From the sequence record DRR378314_1567: 34,147 nt of DNA; one strand, 5' to 3'. Under the pieces are notes generated by a model, which saw nothing but the letters and a program-made list of their open reading frames with translations, had not been told where the DNA came from and searched no databases. Position numbers and translations under genes: made by a program. Shown piece after piece: positions 212 to 34,147 of the stretch; the first letter of the stretch is position 1; each line of letters opens with the position of its first letter.

Positions 212-3200
212 ATGGTACAGCCAGGGAGCAAGGACGATGAATGGGCAAGGGAGGAGCCGGTTGCGAAAGCAACTGCACCTGCTGTCAAGGCGGCGGAGTC
301 ATTTCGCGCAGCGCGGCACGTTCTACTGACAGCGCTTGCCCTGGTGTACACAGCGGCATTTGCCGCCGCATTCTTCCAGCTCGAGCCGCTCGTGGGATCG
401 AAGGGCCTTGCTCCAGCCTCGCTTTACTTTGATGCCGTTGAGCGGCAGACTGGCTCAAAGTGGGCCGCATTCAAGGTGCTTCCGTCACTTTTGTGGCTCG
501 ATTGCAGCGATGCTGCGCTACGCTGGCTGGTGGGCACCGGACTTGCGCTTGCGGTTGTTGCTGCAGTTGGACTGTGCCACCATGCATTGCTCTTTGGCTT
601 TCTATACTGCATACAAATGTCCATTATGAGTGCCGGTCAGGTATTTTACGGGTACGGCTGGGAGATCCTCCTTGCGGAGGCTGGATTTCTGGCGGTATTT
701 CTTGCTCCGGTGCGCTCGCGGACCTCGCTCGCCAGCAGCTCCGAGCCGCCTGTGGCAGTGCTGTGGCTGTACCGTTGGCTGCTCTTCCGCGTCATGTTCG
801 GAGCCGGGCTCATCAAGATCCGTGGAGACCAGTGCTGGCGCGATCTCACATGCATGCAATTTCATTACGAGACCCAGCCCATTCCGAATCCGGTGTCGCC
901 GCTGCTGCACTCGCTCCCGCCAGCGCTGCACGCAGCCGAGGTACTCGTCAACCACATTGTCGAGCTGCCCGCCCCCTTTCTTGTCCTTCTCCCATGTCGG
1001 CTCGCGCGCATGACAGGAGGTATAATCCAAATTGGGTTTCAAATCCTGCTCATCATCTCAGGTGCGATAGGACCTGCTCAGTATGCCCACAGTGCGCTCC
1101 TCCGCACACCGCAGTGCTCCGGCACTTTTGCACGAGCGCTGCACAGTGTGCGCCGTTGCCGAAGTCGATTCTCAGATGGTTGCGGCCACTTGCAGGCTGG
1201 TTCAAGCGCATTCGCCGTTCGCGCAGTATAGCGGCGCGTCCGCTAGTAGTGAACCCTTTTTTCCAAATGTGGTTTCGTGATTAGCAGGGGAAGGACAGTG
1301 GGCCGGATGTGACGCTGTCAGTGGCGCGCAACTAATCCTTGGTCTTGCTGGTTGTGCTTCTCAAATGCGCGCACGTCATCGTAACGGCCAACATTCTTCG
1401 ACCAGGGAATCTGAGCTTTCTCAACTACCTCACGATCGTCTTGTGCTTCAGCTGCTTCGATGACCAAGCGCTGGGCTGGGCAGTTTCTTTACAACGGAAA
1501 GGCATATATGACCGCCACGATCCGCGGAGCGGACGCGCAGCGCGCGCGACCAGGCGAGCTTGCACAGCCGCTCTGGTGGTGACTGTGCTGTGGCTGAGCC
1601 GCGCGCCCGTCGAGGTACGCGCTTCCCCAAACGTTGCCATCGTTTGGAATCGCTGCACACGAGCTCTCGTGGCGATTTTTCTTCTATTGTACTTCACCGT
1701 ACAAAGAGAATCGCGCGTAGATACGCTGCGATGGCGAACGGATAAGGAGCGGGGGGGTGAGGGCCACGGGCTACGAAATTATGGGCACCCCTCCACGCGC
1801 GCAGCTCTGCGCGCGGTGCGGGTGAGCAGTGGCCTCGCGGCCTGTGGGAAAGGAAGACGGGCCGCGAAGATTCGTGGCATAGAAGATGTTTTATCCGCCC
1901 AGTGTACGAATGATTGACAATGTCAACTTTGCGTGCTACACAAAGGCTGTTGTTGTAGGATGGACCACGCGAGCCATTCCGAAAGCGACGGTTTCTTCTG
2001 CTAGAGCTGCGAGAAACGATGGTCTGACGAATCGCCCTGGTCCGCTCGTTGCTTTTCCCTGCTGCACCTGCGCAGAACATGATGTCGCCCGGCCAAGTGA
2101 TGAACACTTCTTTCGACCCATTTCATATTGTGAATACGTATGGTGCATTTGGTTCCATTGGAAGGGATAGGTTCGACGTCATTTTGCAGGTGCGCGCCAT
2201 CATCGACTGTGCGCCGCTTTTGCGCCTCTGGTGTGCGCAACAGCAGCCGTGCCTTGCCGCTTCCAGTACTGGGAATGACACGATTCCCCCCCCAAAAAAA
2301 AAACGCTGCGATGCGAATGACGTAACACCGTGTGCAGGGAACCTCGTCCACCGATCCTAATGCGAATGCTTCCGAATGGCACGAGTACGTTTCACGCCAC
2401 GCGGCGCGCGGGACGGGAGTAGCAACGCACAAGTTTACGAAACTACAGCAGCCTGTGCGGTCTGCGTCGCTCGGTCGCCAAGGAGCGAGAACGCCCCAAT
2501 GTCTAGCAACCGCGGATGCCGAAATGTCCTGAGACTGCCACTCACAGAGTTTTTTTTGAAGAATCAGAGAAAGAGCACGCCGTCGTATACGGAAAGCGAC
2601 GCGTAGGCTTTGTTCCTGCAATATCGCGCTTGCTGACCCCGCACCGCCTATGAACGCCTCCCGCGCGGTCGGTGCACCACAGGTTCGAGTTCCCTTGCAA
2701 GCCCGGAAATCCCAATCGGCCGCACTGTGTTGCCGCTCCGTTTCACTACCGCCTCGACTGGCAGGTCTGGTTTGCGGCAATGCAGAACTACGCTCAGGTA
2801 TGCGACTGAGGTTGATCGCAATGCCCCCCCCCATATTCGCCCTCCCAATGTGATCCGAGAATGCTCTGAGAAGACGCAGAGAGGTGAGGGTGGAGCAGTG
2901 CACCGGAAAGGATTCTTTCGTCGTGCGGGTGGAGCGCTGCGTCCTCGACGCCCTTTTTTCGCTGGGTGATGCCGTTGTGTGCTGCATTGCACGTACCTGC
3001 ACAGCTTCCCCCCCCCATATTTCGCTTTACAAGCCCTGTGCTCACTGGGTGGTGCTCTGTCGCGCTGGTATAAACGGGAACTTTTTTGTGCAGAATCCGT
3101 GGCTGGTTCACTTGGTGGCAAAGCTGCTTGCTGGGTCGTCGCAGCACTACGCACTTCTCAAGTCTTCCTCGCCCTTTTCCGCCGACTCTCCCCCGCGATT

Positions 3201-3677
3201 CATTCGTGCGCAACTGTACCGAATGAATTTTGCAAAGTACGTAACTTTCGTACCCTTTCGTTTCAAACATGATCCCTTAGCTCGCGTTTGTGTGCGCTAA
3301 TGATTGACTCAGTGCGAAGATGAAGAATCGGATTCTGAAGCTTTTCTCTCAGGATATGCCCCAGCGTGCCGCTCTGCCGTATTTCCCACTGCAGCTTCGT
3401 ACCTGAGCTTGCGAATATCGCCGCGATTGGGAATCACGTGTATAGTCCTTTTTTCAGATGATGTACCAATATCGTGCTTTTATTACAGTATTCTGACTGT
3501 GTATCTACGCGCTGTTCGGTGACGTGGGATGCTCCGGTGCGAAACGGCAGTGCTGGTGCAGCGCCGTACTGGCATCGAGAGGCGGTTCGCGAGTACCTCC
3601 CAGCGCTCAGCCTCGACAACAAGAGCTTGGAAATTTTTTGCAAGGCGTACGGATGGATTTGGCCTCCAGAAAAATAG
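212..3677 (+). CDS. LMF1: Lipase maturation factor family ER membrane protein, 7 exons, ~534 aa
   Basis: Exons 212-1061, 1406-1614, 2076-2189, 2338-2384, 2683-2797, 3094-3236, 3551-3677 join in frame (1605 nt), all GT-AG. LMF motifs: FYGYGWEILLAEAGFLAVFL, WLLFRVMFGAGLIKIRGDQCWRDLTCMQFHYETQPIPNP, ISGNLSFLNYLT, IVNTYGAFGSI, EFPCKPG, PFHYRLDWQVWFAAMQ, NPWLVHLVAKLL, PPRFIRAQLY. The last acceptor (3551) is the least certain junction. Confidence 0.93.
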
Positions 3678-12532: not shown

Positions 12533-17493
<4,961 letters not shown>

Positions 17494-18144
17494 CGACCTC
17501 TGCGCACGAGCTCCTTTTCCCCTTGTTCTACGTCGATGAGGTCCTTTCCTTTTGATCGCGCAACGTCCGCTCCACGTTCCCTTCCGCGGAACCGGCCGTT
17601 GACGCTCCGGCTTGACGTGCGCGCCGCCCTGTGGGCTCTTTTCCGTTTTGTTCGGCGCGCACACAATGCAATTGACTTGCTTATGTGATGGAATGGAGCG
17701 GGAGAGAATGCGAGTGAACCTTCTCTCCCGCGCGGGTGTTCGCCGCTGCTGCTCCGTGTTTCCTTCGTTTCGCCGCGCTCGCGGCCGTGCGATCGCGCAG
17801 CGCGAACAGTGAATACAAAGAGAAAAATGAAATAGGAAGAATCTATTAAAAAGAATCGTGCTCTTTATCGGTACAACATTCGCGCGTGCATGCACGGAAC
17901 ACATGCTTTATTTGCGCCCTTTGCGCAAACGAATACCGCCTCTTCGCATACGACGAGAAAGAGAAAGCGCCTGAGCTTCCCTCTGCGCCCGCGCTTGCGT
18001 GCGTGAGCGTGAAGCACGGAAGGGCAGTCGGAGGACGCTGAGCGCTCTCACGCGCACAAGAGTCGCTGCGACTCCGCCCTCCTCCGTCTAGCTCTATCTA
18101 TACAGCAGCGCGCCTGGTACTGGGCGTATGGTGGCGCCTCTGGT

Positions 18145-20253
18145 TTACCGCTGCGCGGTTTTGTGGAGCGGGGCAACGTGCGCTCGACGCGATAGGCCTG
18201 CGGTTCGACAGAGATGCGCAGCGGAAAAACAGACGGAAAGGCGAGTCCCGCGTGAGAGAGTTCGCGCAGCGCCGCATAGACGACCAAATGCTAGTATTCA
18301 GCCTTGTGCGGGCGGCCTATGATGTCGCAACGCTAACCGCGCAGCACTGCTACCACAGGGTCGATCAACTGCCGAGAAGAACATCGTAAACATGGGAGAT
18401 AGCGCAACGCAATCCGCCGCTTTCCCATTCACTGCGCGACCTTGACACATCTCCGATACAATCGAACGAATCACGCAGGAGACGAGACAAACACATAGAC
18501 AACAACAGTGATTCTACCTGCGAGGAAACTCTGGTACGAGAAAGACGTGCGCGTCTTGCCTGTGCGTAAACGCATCCTTGCGAAACGCTGCATCAAAGGG
18601 GCATTCACCATCCACCGCGTAGTAGCACGCGCGCGCTGGGGAAAGCACCTCTCTCCTTCCTTCCCTTTCGGCAACACTGTGTACCTGCCCACCAGTTCCT
18701 CGCTGTCGGGGACACTCCTTTCACCGATGATTAGCAGCGCACACAATCCTTTGCTCTGTCGGCACCCAGGGGCGTTCTCTCACGCACAGCATCATGTACA
18801 AAGGCGGAAGGTAGTGTGTAGGAAAACGTACCGAGGCGGAGCCGCGGCGCGCCCGCCGGGATCCTCACCGGGCCCGACGCGCCGGCTGGCGACTGCGCGC
18901 CGGCGGACGGCGAGAGCGAGGGAGCTGCGCGCCGTGCCGCAACTGCGGAGGCGGAGGACTTTGCGGTGGCGCGCTGTGCGATCGGAGGACTGGTTGGCGC
19001 CTTGCGCGCAGGCTCGTCTTTCTTCTTTGCGGGGCTGCGCGCTGCCGCCGCGCTGCCGCCGCGCCCGCCGCCGCGCCCTCGGCCGCGCGCTCCCCCACGC
19101 CCTCGGCCCTGGCCTTTCGCAGCAGGGCGCCCTGCACGCCCCTCGCTCGAGTAATCTTCAGATTCAGATTCGTCGCTTCCGTCTGACTCAGCGTCGCTAA
19201 AGCTCTTGGCATCAGAATCTGCATCCTCCTCGGCACTCTCGTCGTCATCCGAAGCGCCGGAATCTTCGGCTTCACTAGCCTCCTCCTCACTCTCCTGTGT
19301 GCTGCTCTTTGCACTCCGGGTTGAGCGATTCGGGCTCTTCGCGGGTGGCGCCTCTGGTTTCTTCTCTGCATGATATGGTACAGTGGTGCATTTCGTGCAA
19401 GATGTTGGAAAGCGATACTATGGACAGCGGGTACAACGGCATTCGCCCTGCGATCTTGTGCGCAAGGCCACGCGTCATTCTTTCGCGCACATCCACGCAA
19501 CAGGAATCTTAAAAAACGAGAATAACAAGCGAGGACACACCAAATGCATGCACTGCTTGCCATAATGCGGTGTGTATCCCGGCTCTGCTCACAGGAACGC
19601 ACTCGTAGGCGACGACGCGGTGCGCGAGGCGCGCGCATTCTTGGCAGCAGCAGCCACCTCGCTGAACGAGTCCGGCTCGTCAGGCTGCGAGTCCGCTACA
19701 AGCACAACTTCATCACCGTCGCTGGCGCTGTCGTCGTCGTCACCTTCGCTCTCCTGAAAACGACAAATGCAGCAATGCAAAGCACACATCCGTCATAATT
19801 ATACTTCTTGTTCACCTTTGTAAGGGCCGGGTAGCTCAGGCTTTCCGACAAACAGTCAGCACTGCACACAACGGGCGCTGCTGCGCGTTGGCCAGTCAAG
19901 CTGCGGGCGCAACACGCACATATGCACCACAGATTCGCGGTGAAGTACATAAAGGCCATTCCCTGGATTGCGGAAACCAGACCATGGGCACAAACCTTGC
20001 GAGACTTTTCCAGTGCTTCGGCTAACTGTCGATCCTCGGCAGCTGTGCGCGCATTGCGGCGTCGATTCGAGCGCGATGCCGTATCGCCGCTCGCGCTTGA
20101 TCCAGAGTTGCTCCCCGATCCGCGCGATCGCTTCGCCCGGCTCGGTGCTACCGCACCGACGAAGTCGTCGGAGTCTTCTTCGGACGACTCATCGATAATC
20201 GCCGCGCGCCGTATGGCGCTCTCTGCCGCAGCTCTACGCTTGGGACGCGCCAT
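18145..20253 (-). CDS. RAD51AP1: RAD51AP1-like intrinsically disordered protein with C-terminal RAD51-interaction motif, 4 exons, ~331 aa
   Basis: Exons 20253-19996, 19753-19603, 19365-18832, 18197-18145 join in frame (996 nt), GT-AG. The spliced C-terminus is RLRLG|LSRRAHVAPLHKTAQR*, compared with human RAD51AP1 LRLGLSRLARVKPLH (recalled). The N-terminus is MARPKR...EDSDDFVGAVAPSRAKRSR, followed by a UIM-like EDRQLAEALEKS, an acidic tract and an RG/RGG tract. Confidence 0.75.
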
Positions 20254-21151
20254 TCCTTCACCTTTCCTTTGGGAGATGGATTGTGCGAGGTTGGAGCTGG
20301 AAGGAAATAGAACAAGCGGAAACTACCTCGGCGACTCCGCGAACCTACGAGGAAGTGCGAGTGCGCCCAAACAGGAACAGAAAGCACCGCACATTTCCTC
20401 TATGGTAAGCGCACGAACACTGCACTCACGCATACGATACGGGATACAGGGGCATAATATCCCATGCGAGCACTCGAGGGACGAAGAGAGCGCAGTACGC
20501 AGCCACACCCAGCGCGAATTCCCCGCGCGCGTCGGGACAGACCAGCGGCACTACCGAGCCACCGCGCGCGCGGAGAGCACGAAGCGCGCAGAACCCGCAC
20601 CGACCCAGGGCGGGAAGAAGCGCACAGGCAAGCCGCGCGCTCCGGCGATACACCTCGCGTGTCAACCCAAGTCCCCTCCGTGTTCCTGTTATCTATACAG
20701 GTATGCAACATACCAGCCGGTAAGCGCGCGCGTCAGCGCGCGAGGTCCTGGACAGAAGCAGGAAGAAACGCTTCGTGGCGCGCGCCGCTGTCACGCGGGC
20801 GGCAGCAGAGTTGCTCTGCGGCGTTGCGGCCCGCAGAGGACGGGCAAAGCGCGCGAAACGCGCGCGACAAACCCCAAGTGATTACAGTAAATCCAGGCGA
20901 AATCGAGTTGCTCATCAATCCAGTATTCAGTACGAAAAGTAAAGGGATTGACTAGTTCCTCTTTATGTGACGGAGGAGAATTTTGATCAATGTTTGATCA
21001 ATATAATTTTTATCATTTGTCAAAAAAACGTTTTCCGAAATGTACTATGATCGCAGCTTCCTCCGCTATTCTGCAAAAGGTTGACGCCGCACGTTGTGCT
21101 CGCTCCACGTCGCACGGCGTTTGCGTAGACGCAGGTTTCCAGCCCGATTCG
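20254..21151. promoter_or_regulatory. Divergent promoter region for the RAD51AP1-like gene and AsnRS
   Basis: About 900 bp lie between the outward-facing ATGs. It has a GC/CpG-rich half and an AT-rich patch (~20880-21050) with tandem TTTGATCAAT copies. Confidence 0.55.
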
Positions 21152-24100
21152 ATGGAGGGAGCACTACGGTGTGGCGTGCGCCGTATGTGCACGCGCACAT
21201 TGCTTCCTCTCTCCGGTGTTGCTCTTTGTAGGTGCGTTGCATCGCTCTGTTTCTGTACCTTGCTGAACCGGCGCTGCTGCTCTCTCGCGCTCTTGCGTGC
21301 GATGTTTGCGTGACAGCTTCGCGAACGCGCGTGTTTGTTGCAAAACGCGCCGCTGCATGTCATAAGATTACGTTTCTCTCTTCTGCATGGTACATCTCAG
21401 ATGCTGTATCGATTATCGCCGCACTGACTTGAGCTTTGCGCTGGGAAAAAGACTATGCCCGCCATTCATCTGGTGCTGTGCTGACGAGAGGCCTCGCGCG
21501 CTGTTCGCGACGTGTGCGCCCGTGCTCGCTGCCCGTATGCTTCCACTGTGTGCTATCTGCCAGCCGAGCAGTGAAAGCAGCGAGCAGCTCAGGCGCTTCG
21601 AACGGGTCATGGCCAACGATCCAGCGGATAAAGCAAGGGTTTCGAGCTGACCAGGCCTCCCAATCTGCAACTGCTCGCGGGTGGGTCCGCTCTGTGCGCG
21701 CACAAAAGACAGCAACGTTTCTCGAGGTGCGCAGTGCCTGCCGGGGAGCACGCCGTGGGCGAAGGCTCGATGCTCCACGTATTTTCTTTTTCCCTCGCGC
21801 ACCGACCTTGCGTAGAGTCATGCTGTCGCTTTCCGTGGAAAGCGTCCATGGTGATAGCCGGCTGCTTGCGGCTGCGGATTTTGCAAAGCGCTGCAGTCGA
21901 TTGGTGTGCAGACACCTGAGGACTATGAAGCGCCTGCTGCCGCGCTGCTCCCGCGGCGAGAGCTCCGTTCGCCCTATTTCTTTGGGTTTTGTTCTAGGTA
22001 GCGCCGCTCCTGCGAAAAAAGCACCAGACATGTGCCCGCTGTGAATATTTTTCAACTTAATTTTCTCTTCCTTTTTGGATTTCATTGCACGATTTGCTCT
22101 TAATGGGGAAAGATCAACGATGGGTCATCGCTGAGCGGAATTCAAGTTGTTGTCGACGGCGGCCTGGAAGGAGTGGCGACAGGAGCGGCGGTATCGGCAC
22201 GGGGCGTTTTGCAGCCACATCCGCGCGACAGCTCCACGCCAGAGCTTCACGCTGAATCCAAGGACATTGACATTGTTGGCCCTTCCGACGACACGTACCC
22301 GCTCCAAAAGAAGCGTCACTCGTTGGAGTTCCTACGCGAACAGTTGCATTTCCGCGCCAGGACGAACACGATCTCGAGCATCCTCCGTGTGCGGCACCAT
22401 CTATCGCGCGCCGTGCATGATTTCTTCGCAGAGCGGGACTTTGTGCACGTACACACGCCAATTCTTACATCGAGTGACTGCGAAGGTGCTGGAGAGCTCT
22501 TTGAAGTGAAAGCATCCGGCTTGCCAGAGGGCGAGCAATTCTTCGGAACGAATGCTTATCTGACCGTCAGCGGTACGATCGACAAGCTCGCGATTCCTCC
22601 TTCGATTCCTGCACGCTCCAGCCAAGCGTCCGCCTTGTGCTACCGCCTCTGCTGCGAAACGATCCAGCTCGCGATGCAGAGTTTCTATACCTGCAGTATG
22701 CCCGGTACTGTGTGGCTGAGGGGGCTGCTTGGTGTTGAGTCGAGAGCATGTATTTCGCCAACGTTGGACGTTTCCTGCTCGACGTGAAGACGCAGCTGCA
22801 ACTTGCCGTCTCCCATTCGCCCGTGTTTCTCTGTCGCGCATGCTGTGAAACGCGCGCGAAGAGCAGATGCTGTCGCGCTTCCATTGCTTCAAAAACGATT
22901 TTCCTTATATCGTATTCTTATGCCGATCTTTCTATGTCTGCGTTTCTGTCGCATTTTTTCCTGGTGCAACTTGGACATTGTAGGGCAACTGCACGCGGAG
23001 TCGTTGTGTGAAGCGCTCGGCCGCGTATATACGTTTGGGCCCACATTCCGCGCCGACCACAGCAACACGTCCCGTCATGCAGCAGAATTTTACATGGTGG
23101 AACCAGAAATTGCGTTTGCATCTATGGACGATGCTCTTGACATTGCTCGTGATCTCGTTGCGTTTTGCGCCGCTTCGGTTCTCGAGAATCCACGATTGGA
23201 AGAGGAGATAACCTTCTTCACGAAGCGGCATGATGCAGCGCTGCGCGGTCGCCTTGAGAGCGTCGCGAGCGGTGATTTCGCGCGCGTCTCGTACGACGAA
23301 GCGATCGACATTCTCACATCTGAGAGGTGTGAAATGCAACATGTGATTTTCTCTCTTTATATCACAGCATATGGTGGTGTTTGACCGGAGATAGCGTTCC
23401 CTTGAGTAAGAAATCGGCGCAGCACCCTGCTCTTCTGAATTTCGGGGCGCGCCCTCTGCATCTTTCTCCCTCTGCCGCCCGATCACCGTTTCGGGGCCCT
23501 TTCCGTCTTGCCGTACACTGGAGGCTCCCGCTCCGCTTCTTGTGTGCAATGCGTCATCTACCGCTACACACAAGAGACTCTCCTGTCACAGCCGTGTCTG
23601 CAGTTCCGTGAGGCCTCTCGGATCAATCGTGAAGAAGGAGCGCTGTCTACTTGTTCGTAGATCGGTATCCGCCGCGGGGTTCGCATTCCGGCGCGGCTTC
23701 TCTGCGGTCTTTCGGTTTCTCAAGGTGGCGCGGTTGTCGTGTACGCTTTGTATGCAGCGCGGGATTCCAAGGCCAAGTCCAATGGGGCGACGATCTCAGC
23801 ACTGTGCACGAACGGTATTTAGCTGAGTCACATTTCAAACGACCTGTATTTGTGACCGATTATCCAGCTGCTATAAAGCCGTTTTACATGAGGCAAGTGG
23901 CAGGCGGCTCTCCGAACGGGGATGTTGCGCAAGCATTTGATCTCCTTGTCCCCACCGTCGGTGAGATTGTTGGCGGGTCGGCGCGCGAAGCGGATGCAGC
24001 GGCCCTGCGCAGCAGAATGGAAGCTAGTGGACTGAACATCGCAGACTACGAATGGTACGAAACGTTCTTGTTGGAACTCGACTTCGATGTTCGTTTCTGT

Positions 24101-24609
24101 GGGGACGGGTTAGGGCCGGCGAGCCGGGAGAACCTGGTTGGCGCGCACACGGTGCTGAGCGGGTGAATTGGTGTAGCACCGCGTGACGGAGGGCGCACTT
24201 TCTAATGCAGCACGCTGCATCCCATGGCATAAAATATCTTGCTTCGTATGTTTCGGCTACGCCTGATGACAGCTGTATATCCTCTGTTAGACTTTCCCTC
24301 GTTGCTTGGAACAAGGGATTGCGCAACCAGACCGATATTCGCAGACGCCCGTGCCTGTCCTGTATCGATCCAGATGTACATGCCAGTAGATCACGGATGC
24401 AGAGCTGCTGCACGGGGCGCTCTGTTTGACCTTTTTTTTCTTCTTGCCCCTGACCTATGCGTAGGTACTTGGATTTGCGTCGCTACGGATCTGTGCCTCA
24501 TGCTGGCTTCGGACTCGGATTCGATCGCCTCGTACAATTTCTCACAGCCACATCGAATATCCGCGACGTGCTCCCCATGCCTCGCGCCCAGCGCCTGTGC
24601 AAGCTGTAG
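21152..24609 (+). CDS. NARS2: Asparaginyl-tRNA synthetase, bacterial/mitochondrial type, 6 exons, ~495 aa
   Basis: Exons 21152-21231, 21564-21726, 22113-22572, 22984-23326, 23758-24054, 24465-24609 join in frame (1488 nt). Motifs: [115 protein letters not shown]. The Arg-rich N-terminus resembles a mitochondrial presequence. The start codon is inferred, since in-frame ATGs also lie upstream (e.g. 20990). Confidence 0.94.
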
Positions 24610-29808: not shown

Positions 29809-32800
29809 ATGCTCATCCCAACGGACGCGAGCGGGAATACTTTTCTCCCTCCGTTTGATACGGACGCCGCGACACGAGATGCCGCGCAAAAAGACCCTGT
29901 TGCGGTGCAGAGCGTCTCTGCAAACCTTCAGGCACTCACACTGTTCCTCGCGCAGCAGGTTCGTCGCAGCAGCAGTCGCTCTGCCCTCCTCAATCCAACA
30001 CGAGGGAGCACCGACCCTCGCTGCTCCGAGTGTTCCCGCCGGCGTTCGTTCCCCGTTTCATGATCTCGTGTTGACAAGTCCTACCTGATCATTTCTTTTA
30101 TCAAACCGAACAGGTGGTCGGCTTGACAAATGATACAGATATGTGGAAGAATATCGCTGCGTGGGCGCGTGCGAATAGCGGAACAGGGTACGCTGCGCCG
30201 CTCTTCCTCGCCCATTGCCTCCAACACACGCGCGCGCGTGCTCTGTGATGTGTACGCCTGAGACTCTCTCTCTCTCTCTCGTCATGATGTACACTACAGT
30301 GGTTTGCTGTCTTGACGTGTGACGCCCCCTCTCTTTGTTCTTCTGTGTATATACAGCGTCGTTCCCGAGTGCACAGCGACTGCAGACGCGACTGGGAAGC
30401 TCCTTGGCGCCAACCGGATCGTTAACGGACAAGTACGTGAACAGCGGAGAGCTGGATCCACTCTGTGCTCGTTTCCACACAGGCCTGCGAGCACCAGCGC
30501 ATTTTTATTGAACAAATGAATAGCCTTAGTATCTTGTGTGTGCTTGTTGGCATCCTTGGTGGAGCCGGCGCGCTGCAGCGCGTGCAGTTCGCAATTCCAT
30601 TGAGTAGTTGCTTATCCCGTGCTGCTGCTGTTGCTGCCGCTGCTCTGATTGGGCAATTCGCTCCCTGTTCTCACCCTGCTACTCCGTGAAACACCACTCG
30701 TCTCACTCTTTCTATCGATCCTCCGTTATTCCGTATATTTGTTCCTCTCCACTGATCTTGCAGGAACCGCAGGACAACTGGAATCTGCTGCTGTGGCTTA
30801 GACGGCGCGAATCTGCGCCGAATTCGCAAAACAAAGCAGAAGGTGAGCCGCTTTGTGGGATGTTCGTCAGCAGCAAGCGAGATCAACGTCTATGCGTTAC
30901 TGTGACCAGACGCAAAAAATACTTTGTTGTGGGACTGCTACCGTCCAATGCGCTATGGATTGACACAAGCGATCCGGTTTGTGGGCTTATGAGTGCTTTC
31001 GGGGGTCGTCTTGCAATTGTGTGGCCGAAAAAAACAGAGTCAGCTATCGACTGTGCCTTTCTGGTTGTGCATGGTTAGAGACGCTCAGAATCTCGGAATG
31101 CCTGACTCGTTTTTTTGTAATATTGAGTAGTGAGCTGTGACTTGTGCACTTACGGATTGTGATTTGTTCGTGATGTGGTGTAGGTTGTAGGTGGTTTCTG
31201 GGCAATTATGTTCGCAGTCACTCCCAAGCGAAGACTATATTTTGTAGAATCTCTGCCATTGCTTCTCCCTCTCCCTCCTCCGTATCGATGCTGAAGAACA
31301 AAGTCCTGTTCCTGCGCTGTTTCGCTTCGTTGCTTTGGCAGGAGCATGTCCCTACTTTTCAATATCTCTTCGACCTGGAATCGCTCAGCCAGATGAACGA
31401 ATTTTGCACATTTTGTCGATCACGGAGCAAGAAGTGAATCGATTAATGCGAAGTGGTGACCAATCAGGTCCGATAACTGCTCATAACGAACGATGTGGTC
31501 GTATTCCGCCCTTCAATGCGAAGAACACGCAGCGAATGGGCTTCAAAGGCGCGATGATTTATTCCCCGAATCGTGTTCGTATTGATTGATTCTGCGCTTT
31601 TTTTCCGCAAGTAAACATTGTCCATCTCGATTCGTTCACTGAATGAGCCGAATGCTTGCGCATGATGTTTCATGTCTGAGCAATTGTGAGCCTTAGCGTA
31701 CTTTGTTTCCTTCGTTTGAAGAAGCACAAGTATAAAAGCTGCCGTACGTAGTTGTTGCCCTCCCTTTTTTTATTACATTTGGTCATTTCTTTCGCGTATC
31801 TGTTTCGGCGCTGTTCTGTCCTGTGTTTCTCGCTGTTTTGTTTCGTTGGTCATCGTGGTAGGAGGACGAGGAAATCGCCAACAACAAATCACCTTTGACC
31901 CAGCGAAGGAAACAATTGACGTATTTCTGCAGCAAAACAAGCCATCGCAAGCGAAACAAAGTGGTGCCCACTGGATTGAGGTACTTTATTTGTGGTGTAT
32001 CAGCAGAGCAAGTAATTCCACGAGGTAGATCGAATTCGGTTGCGCACGAATCGTCCCTCGCTCGAATTGCACGAGATATATTTTTTCTCACCTCTCAGAA
32101 TCGTGTTTGTTCGTATTCTCGGCAAGATTCGCGTGAAGAAGACTGTGGTTTGGTTGTACAAACGATGTGACGTTGCGCGCATCTGCTCTTCTCTCCTTTG
32201 TTTGTGTTTTGTTCAACGTTCTGTTGTTGTTGTTGTTTCGCCAATTTCGCCTTCTCTACGTTCCGAAAGGTTAAACTACGTGATCGACATGAAGTTCAGA
32301 ATCTACCTGCTCTCAAATCTGACTGGGAGAATCTCTGCAGCAATGCAAAAGGTGCGTAATGGCGCGAAATGGATGGTAGTTGTGCGAGAAGGATACCGCG
32401 ATTTCCAGGGGCACGTAAACGCTGTGACGGCGAAAGGTGAGAAGGAAAAACCAGGGCTGTCGCTGTGGAAGTACGACGCAATTTATTCTATTTGGCTGCG
32501 TCTCGTTTTTTTTCTTCTTCTTTTCTTGGCTCTCTTCAGCTGCACTTTGCTTTCCTTTGTTGTCTTCGTTGGTTATGTTTCGATTTGTGATCACCCTTCT
32601 TCGCATCGTGTGCTGCTTGGATATCACTTGCTGTAATTGTCTGTTCGGTCGACGATTTCCTCAGTTTGCACTTTCATCGTGGGACTTTCGTTGCACAGTC
32701 TCCTATCGCTACTTTTTTTCGCGACCCTGTTCTGTGAAGCCAACTTTCTTTCTCGGATGCGTATGATTTATGCTGTATCTGTTTTGATCTCCGCGTTGGC

Positions 32801-33784
32801 GGTTGCTGTAGGTCCCCAGCGAAGGAAAATCACCGAGGACGACATTGTCAATCTCGCACGACGTTACAGTCATGTGGAAGGTATCAACGTTGCAATCCGC
32901 GTAACTGCCAAGAGGCGCCATATCTTCCGTCGCCATTCACGACAAACTTCGTCTTTTGCAATGTTTTTTCATCAGAAAGCATTTGTAGTTGGCATTTAGT
33001 TTAGTGACTGGGCGCCGGTGTGTTTCGATGGATTTGAGCGCAAGTACCTAGCTCTCCCTTTCCGCTTCTTCTCGCTGTGTCCTCGGTCGCGAATATCTCA
33101 TAAAGGCGCTCGGAATGTGATCTGCCTCTTTTCAACACGATTTTTCCTTGTTCAAGGGCGATGGATGGTATTTGTGTCTGCAGATGCAGTTGATGACGCA
33201 TTTGCAGCTGTTTCAAAGGCTCTCCTGAGTGGTCAGCTCGGAACAAGGTTTGTTTGGTCACGAGCCGAGATATCTCGTCTCGGTGTCTGGAACGGATCTA
33301 CCACGTGTCCTTTCTCGTCATTATCAGAGTACCGCAGCACGTGTAGATCGCGAAAATATTCTTGAACTTGCCTACTAAAGCAGTTATGGCGGTATATTCC
33401 CGGTGCGACCCGTCTCCGTCGTCTTTTTTATTTGATACCGTTGTGCGGTGTTGTATTCTTTTTCCCTTGTTTTGTCCATATCGGCTTCGCTCGCTGCCGG
33501 TAAACCAAAGAGTGGAAGTTTTTTTTCGTACCGCTTTCCTATCGATTGCAATGCCCTGTACTCCTTTCCCTTCACACATGACCGTGCCGTTCTTTTGACG
33601 GGAAGGCTCGTTTGCCACGCTTTTCGCGTCCTCGCATGCGAGAAGATTCTCTCGGAGCTGCTCCGCTCATTACTGGCCCTCGTTTTGTTGTTGATGTCGT
33701 TGTAGTGTTCGTGTTGCTACGAGCCCGGACGCGCAGAATTCGTACATCATTCTTGTCTCTACAAACGACTTTACGAATCAACAG
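29809..33784 (+). CDS. DUF1917 / Bles03 (C11orf68/UPF0696-like, eIF4E-like fold) protein with unrecognised N-terminal region; 3' end runs off the window
   Basis: Phase-consistent exons 29800-29958 (first in-frame ATG 29809), 30114-30187, 30357-30432, 30764-30842, 31342-31467, 31862-31980, 32270-32351, 32812-32880, 33157-33247, 33706-33784, plus an upstream intron 29722-29799. The C-terminal part ITFDPAKETIDVFLQQNKPSQ...WIEV...ALKSDWENL...LARRYSHVEGRWMVFV...VDDAFAAVSKALLSGQLG...YIILVSTNDFTN follows the DUF1917 pattern (FL...PPS, WI.V, L..AW, GKW, VD.AW..I, VICVYT.DF). The start and the linkage of the 5' exons are less certain. Confidence 0.72.
30264..30280. repeat. (CT)n microsatellite in an intron
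   Basis: CTCTCTCTCTCTCTCTC within intron 30188-30356. Confidence 0.8.
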
Positions 33785-34120
33785 GTATGTTTGTGGTTTC
33801 TTTACTAATCGTTCAATACGCTTCGCGTAGTAAGTTGTATGTGTAGATATTTTTAGTTCTGCAAAAAGTGCCTCTGAGTGTTTCTGTTCGGGAACGAGGA
33901 AGAGATTGCCGATTGTCCTATATCAGCGACGTGTGTGGATATGAAATGATCTCTTTTCTCACTGATTGAGAAAAAAAAGTGAATATCTGAACGTTATTTT
34001 TATCTCCTTTTTGCGACAGTATCACGTGTTGTATTCATTCGCTAGTTTGTTAGCGAATTACGTAGTTGAAGTTTTTCTGCGTCGGTGCTGGCAAGGAGGA
34101 AGAAGTCGTAGAGTTGGTGT

Positions 34121-34147
34121 TTTTGTTTTTGTTTTTGTTTTTTTTTT
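34121..34147. repeat. T-rich low-complexity tract at the window end
   Basis: Repeated TTTTTG units ending in poly-T; probably intronic or the sequence end. Confidence 0.7.

Follow-up and report, generated by a model that had tools for sequence, protein, structure and literature searches.

A spliced, expressed gene for a disordered protein with a RAD51AP1-type C-terminal motif in a compact eukaryotic genome

The DNA analyzed here, a stretch of 34,147 nucleotides (nt) from sequence record DRR378314_1567 that is called the window below, carries on its minus strand a gene at 20253..18145 that encodes a protein of 331 amino acids (aa). At the C-terminus of this protein is the motif LRLGLSR-x6-LH, in which the residues known to contact RAD51 in human RAD51AP1 are all present, at the same spacing and in the same terminal position. 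With moderate confidence, we read the protein as an accessory factor of RAD51, similar to RAD51AP1, that docks via this C-terminal peptide, whose functional residues are identical to those of the human protein. The host is a non-vertebrate eukaryote with a compact genome, and RAD51AP1 and its relative RAD51AP2 have been called vertebrate-specific (PMC1636435). The first-pass annotation of the window, a model's reading of the letters, had said the same of RAD51AP1, and this description is borne out by the papers searched.

The C-terminal motif and its assembly by splicing

The gene model was obtained by splicing of the sequence and agrees with the one put forward in the first-pass annotation: four exons, separated by three GT..AG introns, with a spliced coding sequence of 996 nt that gives 331 aa and a TAA stop (coordinates in Table 1). 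The start codon is the first ATG downstream of an in-frame stop at 20323-20325. As had been stated, the gene is not recoverable from the list of stop-to-stop open reading frames (ORFs), which shows only pieces of it. All the blocks quoted in that annotation are present in the spliced translation, namely the N-terminal MARPKR...DSDDFVGAVAP...KRSR, RQLAEALEKSRKE across the junction of exons 1 and 2, an Asp/Glu/Ser tract at residues ~161-212, and RLRLGLSRRAHVAPLH, which ends 5 residues before the stop. Its claim of a length similar to that of human RAD51AP1 is also correct (331 aa here versus 335 aa in one human isoform; PMC1636435).

A pattern search places LRLGLSRRAHVAPLH at residues 312-326 of the spliced protein, with the L-H pair 5 residues from the C-terminus. 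The motif depends on the splice 18832/18197. A 2025 study of human RAD51AP1 on RAD51 filaments by cryo-electron microscopy defines two contact sites in this region (PMC12704761). Site-M is 332-LRLGLSR-338, of which L334 and L336 lie in a hydrophobic RAD51 pocket and R333 is paired with RAD51 D50, and Site-C consists of L345 and H346, which lie in a shallow RAD51 groove (PMC12704761). H346 is close to the human protein's extreme C-terminus, and the L336Q and H346A substitutions disrupt RAD51 binding (PMC12704761). The residues of RAD51 given there as lining the human pocket are D50, F92, R95, I100, T119, Q145, and D184 (PMC12704761). All nine residues of human Site-M and L345/H346 are identical in the protein described here, as is the length of the 6-residue spacer, and the equivalents of human L336 and H346 are L316 and H326. 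The claim that the spliced C-terminus creates a RAD51AP1-type motif was therefore upheld for the RAD51-contacting residues, their spacing, and their terminal position. Two of the motif positions that do differ correspond to human L322 and K326 in the numbering of the 335-aa isoform; substitutions of R321, L322, and K326 left RAD51 binding unaffected in a yeast two-hybrid assay (Kovalenko et al. 2006; PMC1636435).

When the window is read in all six frames (68,290 residues), the shorter pattern GLSR-x6-LH is found once, at this gene; its per-position probability is 1.6e-7, and ~0.01 occurrences would be expected. The full LRLGLSR-x6-LH has a per-position probability of 1.4e-10, which drops to 3.8e-13 if the Leu- and His-poor composition of the protein itself is used. 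Four of the eight Leu and both His of the protein fall within the 15-residue motif.

Pfam scans were run on contiguous DNA, so that the exon pieces were scored separately. RAD51_interact (PF15696) was the only family matched by the exon-4 piece, at 17.2 bits and E=0.006 for the last 20 aa; on the 50-aa exon-4 ORF it scored 14.1 bits. The match on the 20 aa spans profile positions 25-36, so 12 of the 39 positions were available to it. The comparison with this profile, which the annotation had named as a check, thus returned the expected family as the sole one, but at a score below the Pfam gathering cut-off of 25 bits for the exon-4 part taken without the exon-3 half. The exon-3 tail scanned alone gave no Pfam match.

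Transcript evidence and the last donor

Transcript evidence came from Logan contigs of a single public run, X1, whose kind was guessed as RNA and in which 0.36 of the sampled words were present; the contigs were aligned to 17950-20450 of the window. A 757-nt contig matches 20333-19995, 19752-19603, and 19365-19098. Its two joints skip 242 and 237 nt, and the skipped segments have CT..AC ends on the plus strand, equivalent to GT..AG when read along the gene. Since this contig omits exactly introns 1 and 2, the gene is transcribed and is spliced as predicted at both, confirming that it is a real, spliced gene. A second contig, of 292 nt, lies on 17950-18198 and continues with 3 extra letters off the intron, so that its match to the genome breaks off at the predicted exon-4 acceptor; because exon 3 ends in the same base as 18198, that position is ambiguous in this contig. 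None of the X1 contigs contains the joint 18832/18197, as 18202-19041 is without cover and intron 3 is unbridged. The RNA comparison suggested in the annotation therefore confirmed introns 1 and 2 but not the last joint, for which the acceptor is backed by the 292-nt contig and the donor by its fit to the local pattern described next.

Neighboring introns were placed by homology to bacterial-type guide proteins, and four of the seven gaps examined were solved with zero length error. The homology-placed donors are GTACGA, GTGTGA, GTACGA, and GTGCGA, and the two RNA-confirmed donors are GTTTGT and GTGCGT. All six have C or T at +4, G at +5, and A or T at +6. The intron-3 donor, GTACGT, is consistent with this pattern. 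Between 19097 and 18731, 15 GT sites keep an open frame into exon 4, and only 18832 (TCG/GTACGT, phase 1) makes L-R-L-G/L-S-R.

Other donors lie near the end of exon 3, at 18869, 18788, and 18784, and it is possible, though quite improbable in our view, that the last junction differs from 18832/18197, so that the protein has another C-terminus and the motif is never made. In one such form, a phase-0 junction from 18869 or 18788 to the unchanged acceptor would give 351 or 378 aa with a basic, Cys-containing tail. The gap in contig cover and the number of frame-keeping GT sites leave room for such a junction, as does the fact that all three exon-4 frames are open for 17-49 codons. The donor at 18788 (GTGCGT) conforms to the local pattern as well, and the one at 18869 (GTGAGG) resembles the general consensus donor; with either, the tail would be different and without the motif. 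However, exon 4 on its own already contains G-L-S-R-x6-L-H in the frame of the proposed splice and matches RAD51_interact. In addition, L-R-L directly precedes the donor at 18832 and completes the published 7-residue site, which by residue frequencies has a chance of ~1e-3 per site. GTACG is the donor in two of the four homology-placed neighboring introns, whereas A stands at +4 in GTGAGG (18869) and GTGAGA (18784), a base that none of the six local donors has there. These points favor 18832 as the predicted last donor.

Joined to the same acceptor in other phases, the minus-strand donors at 18869, 18788, and 18784 would encode proteins of 351, 378, and 347 aa, respectively. They may represent alternative isoforms, some of them without the RAD51-binding tail.

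The introns considered in the window have donor positions 19995, 19602, 18831, 22573, 23327, 24055, and 1062. Their donors read GT[A/G/T][C/T]G[A/T] instead of GTRAGT in all six confirmed or homology-placed cases, with GTACG in two, and the acceptors of the window's introns are without a clear polypyrimidine tract. The local donor pattern could aid gene prediction in the host organism.

The rest of the protein and its possible relatives

Disorder-promoting residues make up 79% of the 331-aa protein, which has no Cys and no Trp. From the N- to the C-terminus, its elements are a basic N-terminus, an acidic patch, K/R clusters, a helix resembling a ubiquitin-interacting motif (UIM), a VVLV cluster resembling a SUMO-interacting motif (SIM), the Asp/Glu/Ser tract, an RG/RGG box, and an Ala/Ser/Pro linker. 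The K/R clusters, at residues 5, 64, 137, and 250, and the RG/RGG box, at 221-240, were assigned by composition only; six of the seven RG dipeptides fall within residues 224-239. There are 17 CK2-type S/T-x-x-D/E sites across the whole protein. The SIM-like VVLV, at residues 102-105 with acidic flanks, is the single such cluster and a pattern match only. The same is true of the UIM-like L-x-x-A-x-x-x-S-x-x-E at residues 77-87, which crosses the junction of exons 1 and 2. The UIM consensus (PF02809) is a helix of the form hydrophobic-x-x-Ala-x-x-x-Ser-x-x-acidic. The Pfam UIM profile gave no match on exon 1 alone, and the best named ESM Atlas cluster for exon 1 was 13% UIM with a score of 0.76, which is under the level that counts; with the 20-aa tail, the Atlas gave no usable match. 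An F-V-G-A is present at residues 31-34. Reading it as an F-x-x-A motif was rejected as too weak, since Ala accounts for 20% of the protein's residues and stands at +3 from two of its three Phe.

Taken with the transcript and motif data, this layout suggests how the protein might work. The locus is an expressed four-exon gene, and its nuclear-type product, disordered almost throughout, would act in the manner of RAD51AP1. Its C-terminal motif, assembled by the last splice, would dock on the protomers of the RAD51 filament in the way seen for the human peptide: both L-G-L leucines would enter the hydrophobic pocket between the N-terminal domain of RAD51 and its ATPase core, the motif arginine would pair with an acidic RAD51 residue, and the L-H pair would enter the shallow groove. 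The RG/RGG box, together with the lysine clusters, may bind DNA or RNA and, by doing so, could bridge the presynaptic filament to duplex DNA, which would make the filament more stable and promote the formation of D-loops. Candidate sites for regulation or for partners are the long CK2-type acidic tract and the two islands that resemble a SIM and a UIM.

Several results weigh against this reading, among them the low profile score, the exon-3 tail with no match, and the unbridged last joint already given. Among 1,835,955,588 representatives, phmmer found 0 matches to exon 1 at E<=0.001, and a word-indexed search of proteins of 114-364 aa returned 288 candidates for exon 1, none of them at E<=0.01. 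When the exon-4 ORF, exon 1, and the 20-aa tail were searched against PDB sequences, no RAD51AP1 chain came up; the C-terminal fragment that has been deposited was either out of reach of these searches or not in the copy searched. The W-V-P-P site through which RAD51AP1 binds DMC1 (Site-N) is absent, as the 331 aa contain no Trp and no [FWY]-x-P-P; the sole x-P-P sites, at residues 141-146 and 261-266, are without an aromatic residue. Lastly, short linear motifs can arise independently.

Another possible explanation is that the gene encodes a generic acidic and RGG-containing nuclear or nucleolar protein, for example a disordered chromatin- or RNA-binding one, with a C-terminal match that is fortuitous or non-functional and with no role with RAD51. 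Outside the 15-residue motif the sequence is of low complexity and no relative was detected, and the Pfam matches of exon 3 are weak acidic-tract look-alikes only (such as Nop14, BUD22, and CDC45; E 0.086-8.4). The RAD51_interact score under the cut-off fits this explanation too. Moreover, the motif was picked out in the first pass from a very large scan, and such post hoc selection inflates its apparent significance. We nevertheless consider this explanation unlikely, given the identity of all nine functionally documented residues together with spacing and terminal position, and given the per-position probabilities above, which are low under either composition. The protein is also poor in hydrophobic residues, and those it has are concentrated in the motif, which is what a conserved binding site within a disordered chain would be expected to show.

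The first-pass annotation had gone further and proposed full-length, colinear homology to RAD51AP1. This was not established: exon 1 is without a relative in the phmmer, word-indexed, and PDB searches, and the W-x-P-P site is missing. The exon-4 ORF compared with longer proteins gave 8 candidates, none of them at E<=10. The possible resemblance of the N-terminal and middle blocks to human RAD51AP1 that the annotation put forward remains a lead. Distant homology is compatible with these negatives, since far fewer bits are needed in a pairwise or profile comparison aimed at one family than when billions of sequences are searched. The whole protein may come from the same ancestor as vertebrate RAD51AP1, or the binding module alone may be shared, as it is in RAD51AP2.

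Compared with vertebrate RAD51AP1, the protein has the same C-terminal LRLGLSR, 6 residues, and LH close to the C-terminus, is likewise largely disordered, and, judged by composition, has basic segments of a putative nucleic-acid-binding type and an acidic Ser-rich tract. RAD51AP1 is described as largely disordered, with DNA- and RNA-binding sites and a C-terminal RAD51 site, and its Site-N, with conserved K, K, W, P, and P, is upstream of the RAD51 site (PMC12704761). The differences are the W-x-P-P motif, which RAD51AP1 has and the protein here does not, the prominent RG/RGG box, the compact-genome non-vertebrate host, and the lack of measurable sequence similarity outside the motif in our searches. 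The motif is also split by an intron here, whereas a short last exon contains the complete motif in both human genes, RAD51AP1 and RAD51AP2, and in RAD51AP1 the entire RAD51-interacting region (PMC1636435).

RAD51AP2 is a precedent for the motif on an otherwise unrelated protein: it is a vertebrate, meiosis-specific protein of 1159 aa that, as described, has only the C-terminal motif in common with RAD51AP1 (PMC1636435). Its critical Leu and Leu-His are 9 residues apart (L1134, L1143, and H1144; PMC1636435), and the same spacing is found here between L316 and the L325 and H326 pair. RAD51AP2 is, however, 3.5x longer, and the size and charge-block layout of the protein here are RAD51AP1-like and not RAD51AP2-like. 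NUCKS1 resembles the protein here in being small and is not known to have the C-terminal RAD51-binding motif, the one feature established for our protein. It is a chromatin-associated paralogue of RAD51AP1 with extensive homology to it and supports homologous recombination (PMC4787752). In the BRC F-x-x-A and the BRCA2 F-x-P-P "P-motif", a short peptide within a disordered region docks on protomers of a recombinase (PMC11229353); an F-x-x-A such as the F-V-G-A here is too short to mean much, and there is no [FWY]-x-P-P.

A broader possibility, which we regard as doubtful but worth stating, is that RAD51AP1 is an ancient eukaryotic recombination factor and not a vertebrate invention, and that this protist gene is a full-length orthologue. 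It could have been overlooked because the protein is disordered and fast-evolving, with only the 15-residue peptide strongly conserved, and because that peptide is split by an intron here. If so, the interface between the RAD51 groove and the peptide has been conserved since before this lineage split from animals, and comparable hidden orthologues are expected in many other eukaryotes. A review of homologous recombination in Toxoplasma gondii gives "ND" for RAD51AP1 in both yeast and T. gondii (PMC4853372). A search of the literature for RAD51AP1 with Apicomplexa, Toxoplasma, invertebrates, or Arabidopsis found no non-vertebrate homologue described, and the Arabidopsis and Leishmania papers that were checked mean the human protein. 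Database entries outside vertebrates may already exist, in the species range of PF15696 or in the orthologue alignment of PMC12704761, which would lower the novelty. An exact RAD51-docking peptide in a compact, protist-like genome would either mean that this way of regulating RAD51 arose far earlier in eukaryote evolution or be a striking case of convergence on one and the same RAD51 groove. It would also give a simple candidate RAD51 accessory factor in a lineage with poorly known mediators, and would show that splice-aware motif searches catch disordered repair factors missed by ORF- and profile-based annotation.

Features of the locus and its surroundings

The window is gene-dense, with multi-exon genes, introns measured or predicted at 237-634 nt, and a guanine-plus-cytosine (GC) content of 46-63%. 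The features of the RAD51AP1-like gene and the neighboring genes are listed in Table 1.

Table 1. Features of the RAD51AP1-like gene and of neighboring genes in the window (UTR, untranslated region)
Feature	Position	Strand	Remarks
5' UTR, minimum extent	20254..20333	-	X1 spliced contig begins at 20333; no ATG seen upstream of the start codon
Exon 1, residues 1-86	19996..20253	-	Junction to exon 2 shown by contig; basic N-terminus, acidic patch with F-V-G-A, KRSR cluster, Ser-rich stretch, start of UIM-like helix
Intron 1, 242 nt, GTTTGT..CAG	19754..19995	-	Skipped by 757-nt contig, joint 19752/19995, cut +1
Exon 2, residues 87-136 + 1 nt	19603..19753	-	Both junctions shown by contig; acidic stretch and sole hydrophobic SIM-like cluster VVLV (19697-19708)
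Intron 2, 237 nt, GTGCGT..CAG	19366..19602	-	Skipped by 757-nt contig, joint 19365/19603
Exon 3, residues 137-314 + 1 nt	18832..19365	-	Contig covers 19098-19365; 3' end predicted from donor TCG/GTACGT; KKK cluster, D/E/S tract (~19139-19294), RG/RGG box (19055-19114), second KKK cluster
Exon 3, 3' part: Ala/Ser/Pro-rich linker, then first half of motif, L-R-L-G	18832-18841 (L-R-L-G)	-	
Intron 3, 634 nt, GTACGT..CAG, predicted	18198..18831	-	GT-AG ends, phase 1; acceptor backed by 292-nt contig
Exon 4 coding part, (G)LSRRAHVAPLHKTAQR + TAA stop	18145..18197	-	Pfam PF15696 match, below the gathering cut-off
Putative RAD51-binding motif, second half, exon 4	18163-18197	-	
3' UTR, minimum	17950..18144	-	292-nt contig on 17950-18198, with ~40 nt more past 17950
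LMF1-family (lipase maturation factor) gene	~250-3660	+	At least 5 introns
MAP (mitogen-activated protein) kinase exon	14160-14300	+	Best PDB matches are "Mitogen-activated protein kinase 6" chains 6dtl and 5ci6
Asn-type class II tRNA synthetase (AsnRS)	22113-24594	+	Four homology-supported exons, introns ~410-430 nt
Glutathione-reductase-type flavoenzyme	24.9-28.4 kb		

No close annotated relative was found for the window's genes in the LMF1-family and AsnRS searches. The LMF1 search gave 5840 matches at E<=1e-10, of which the best 120 were at 43-54% identity; the 5 of those 120 that have an organism name are all bacterial metagenome-assembled genomes. A bacterial-type LMF is thus seen in a eukaryotic, intron-bearing context. 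For the AsnRS exon searched against metagenome contigs, 178 of 598 pattern-matching stretches encode a relative, and the best 80 are at 41-52% identity, none of them close. Since it is 41-52% identical to these metagenome genes, which look bacterial, the synthetase is probably an organelle-targeted enzyme. Its gene is divergent from the RAD51AP1-like gene, with coding starts ~1.9 kb apart. The PDB entries matched by the MAP kinase exon, which we take to be plant entries, hint at an ERK/plant-type kinase and are not a placement of the organism. The DNA gives a coccidian impression, on which no argument here is based.

Two antisense open frames on the plus strand, at 19835-20881 and 18499-19200 (348 and 233 aa), overlap the RAD51AP1-like gene and its promoter. 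Neither matches a Pfam family, and both probably arise from the GC-rich composition of the DNA. Scanning the window for Rfam families and tRNAs gave no hits. Toward the end of the window, at 31000-34147, GC falls to ~46%, compared to 51-63% elsewhere.

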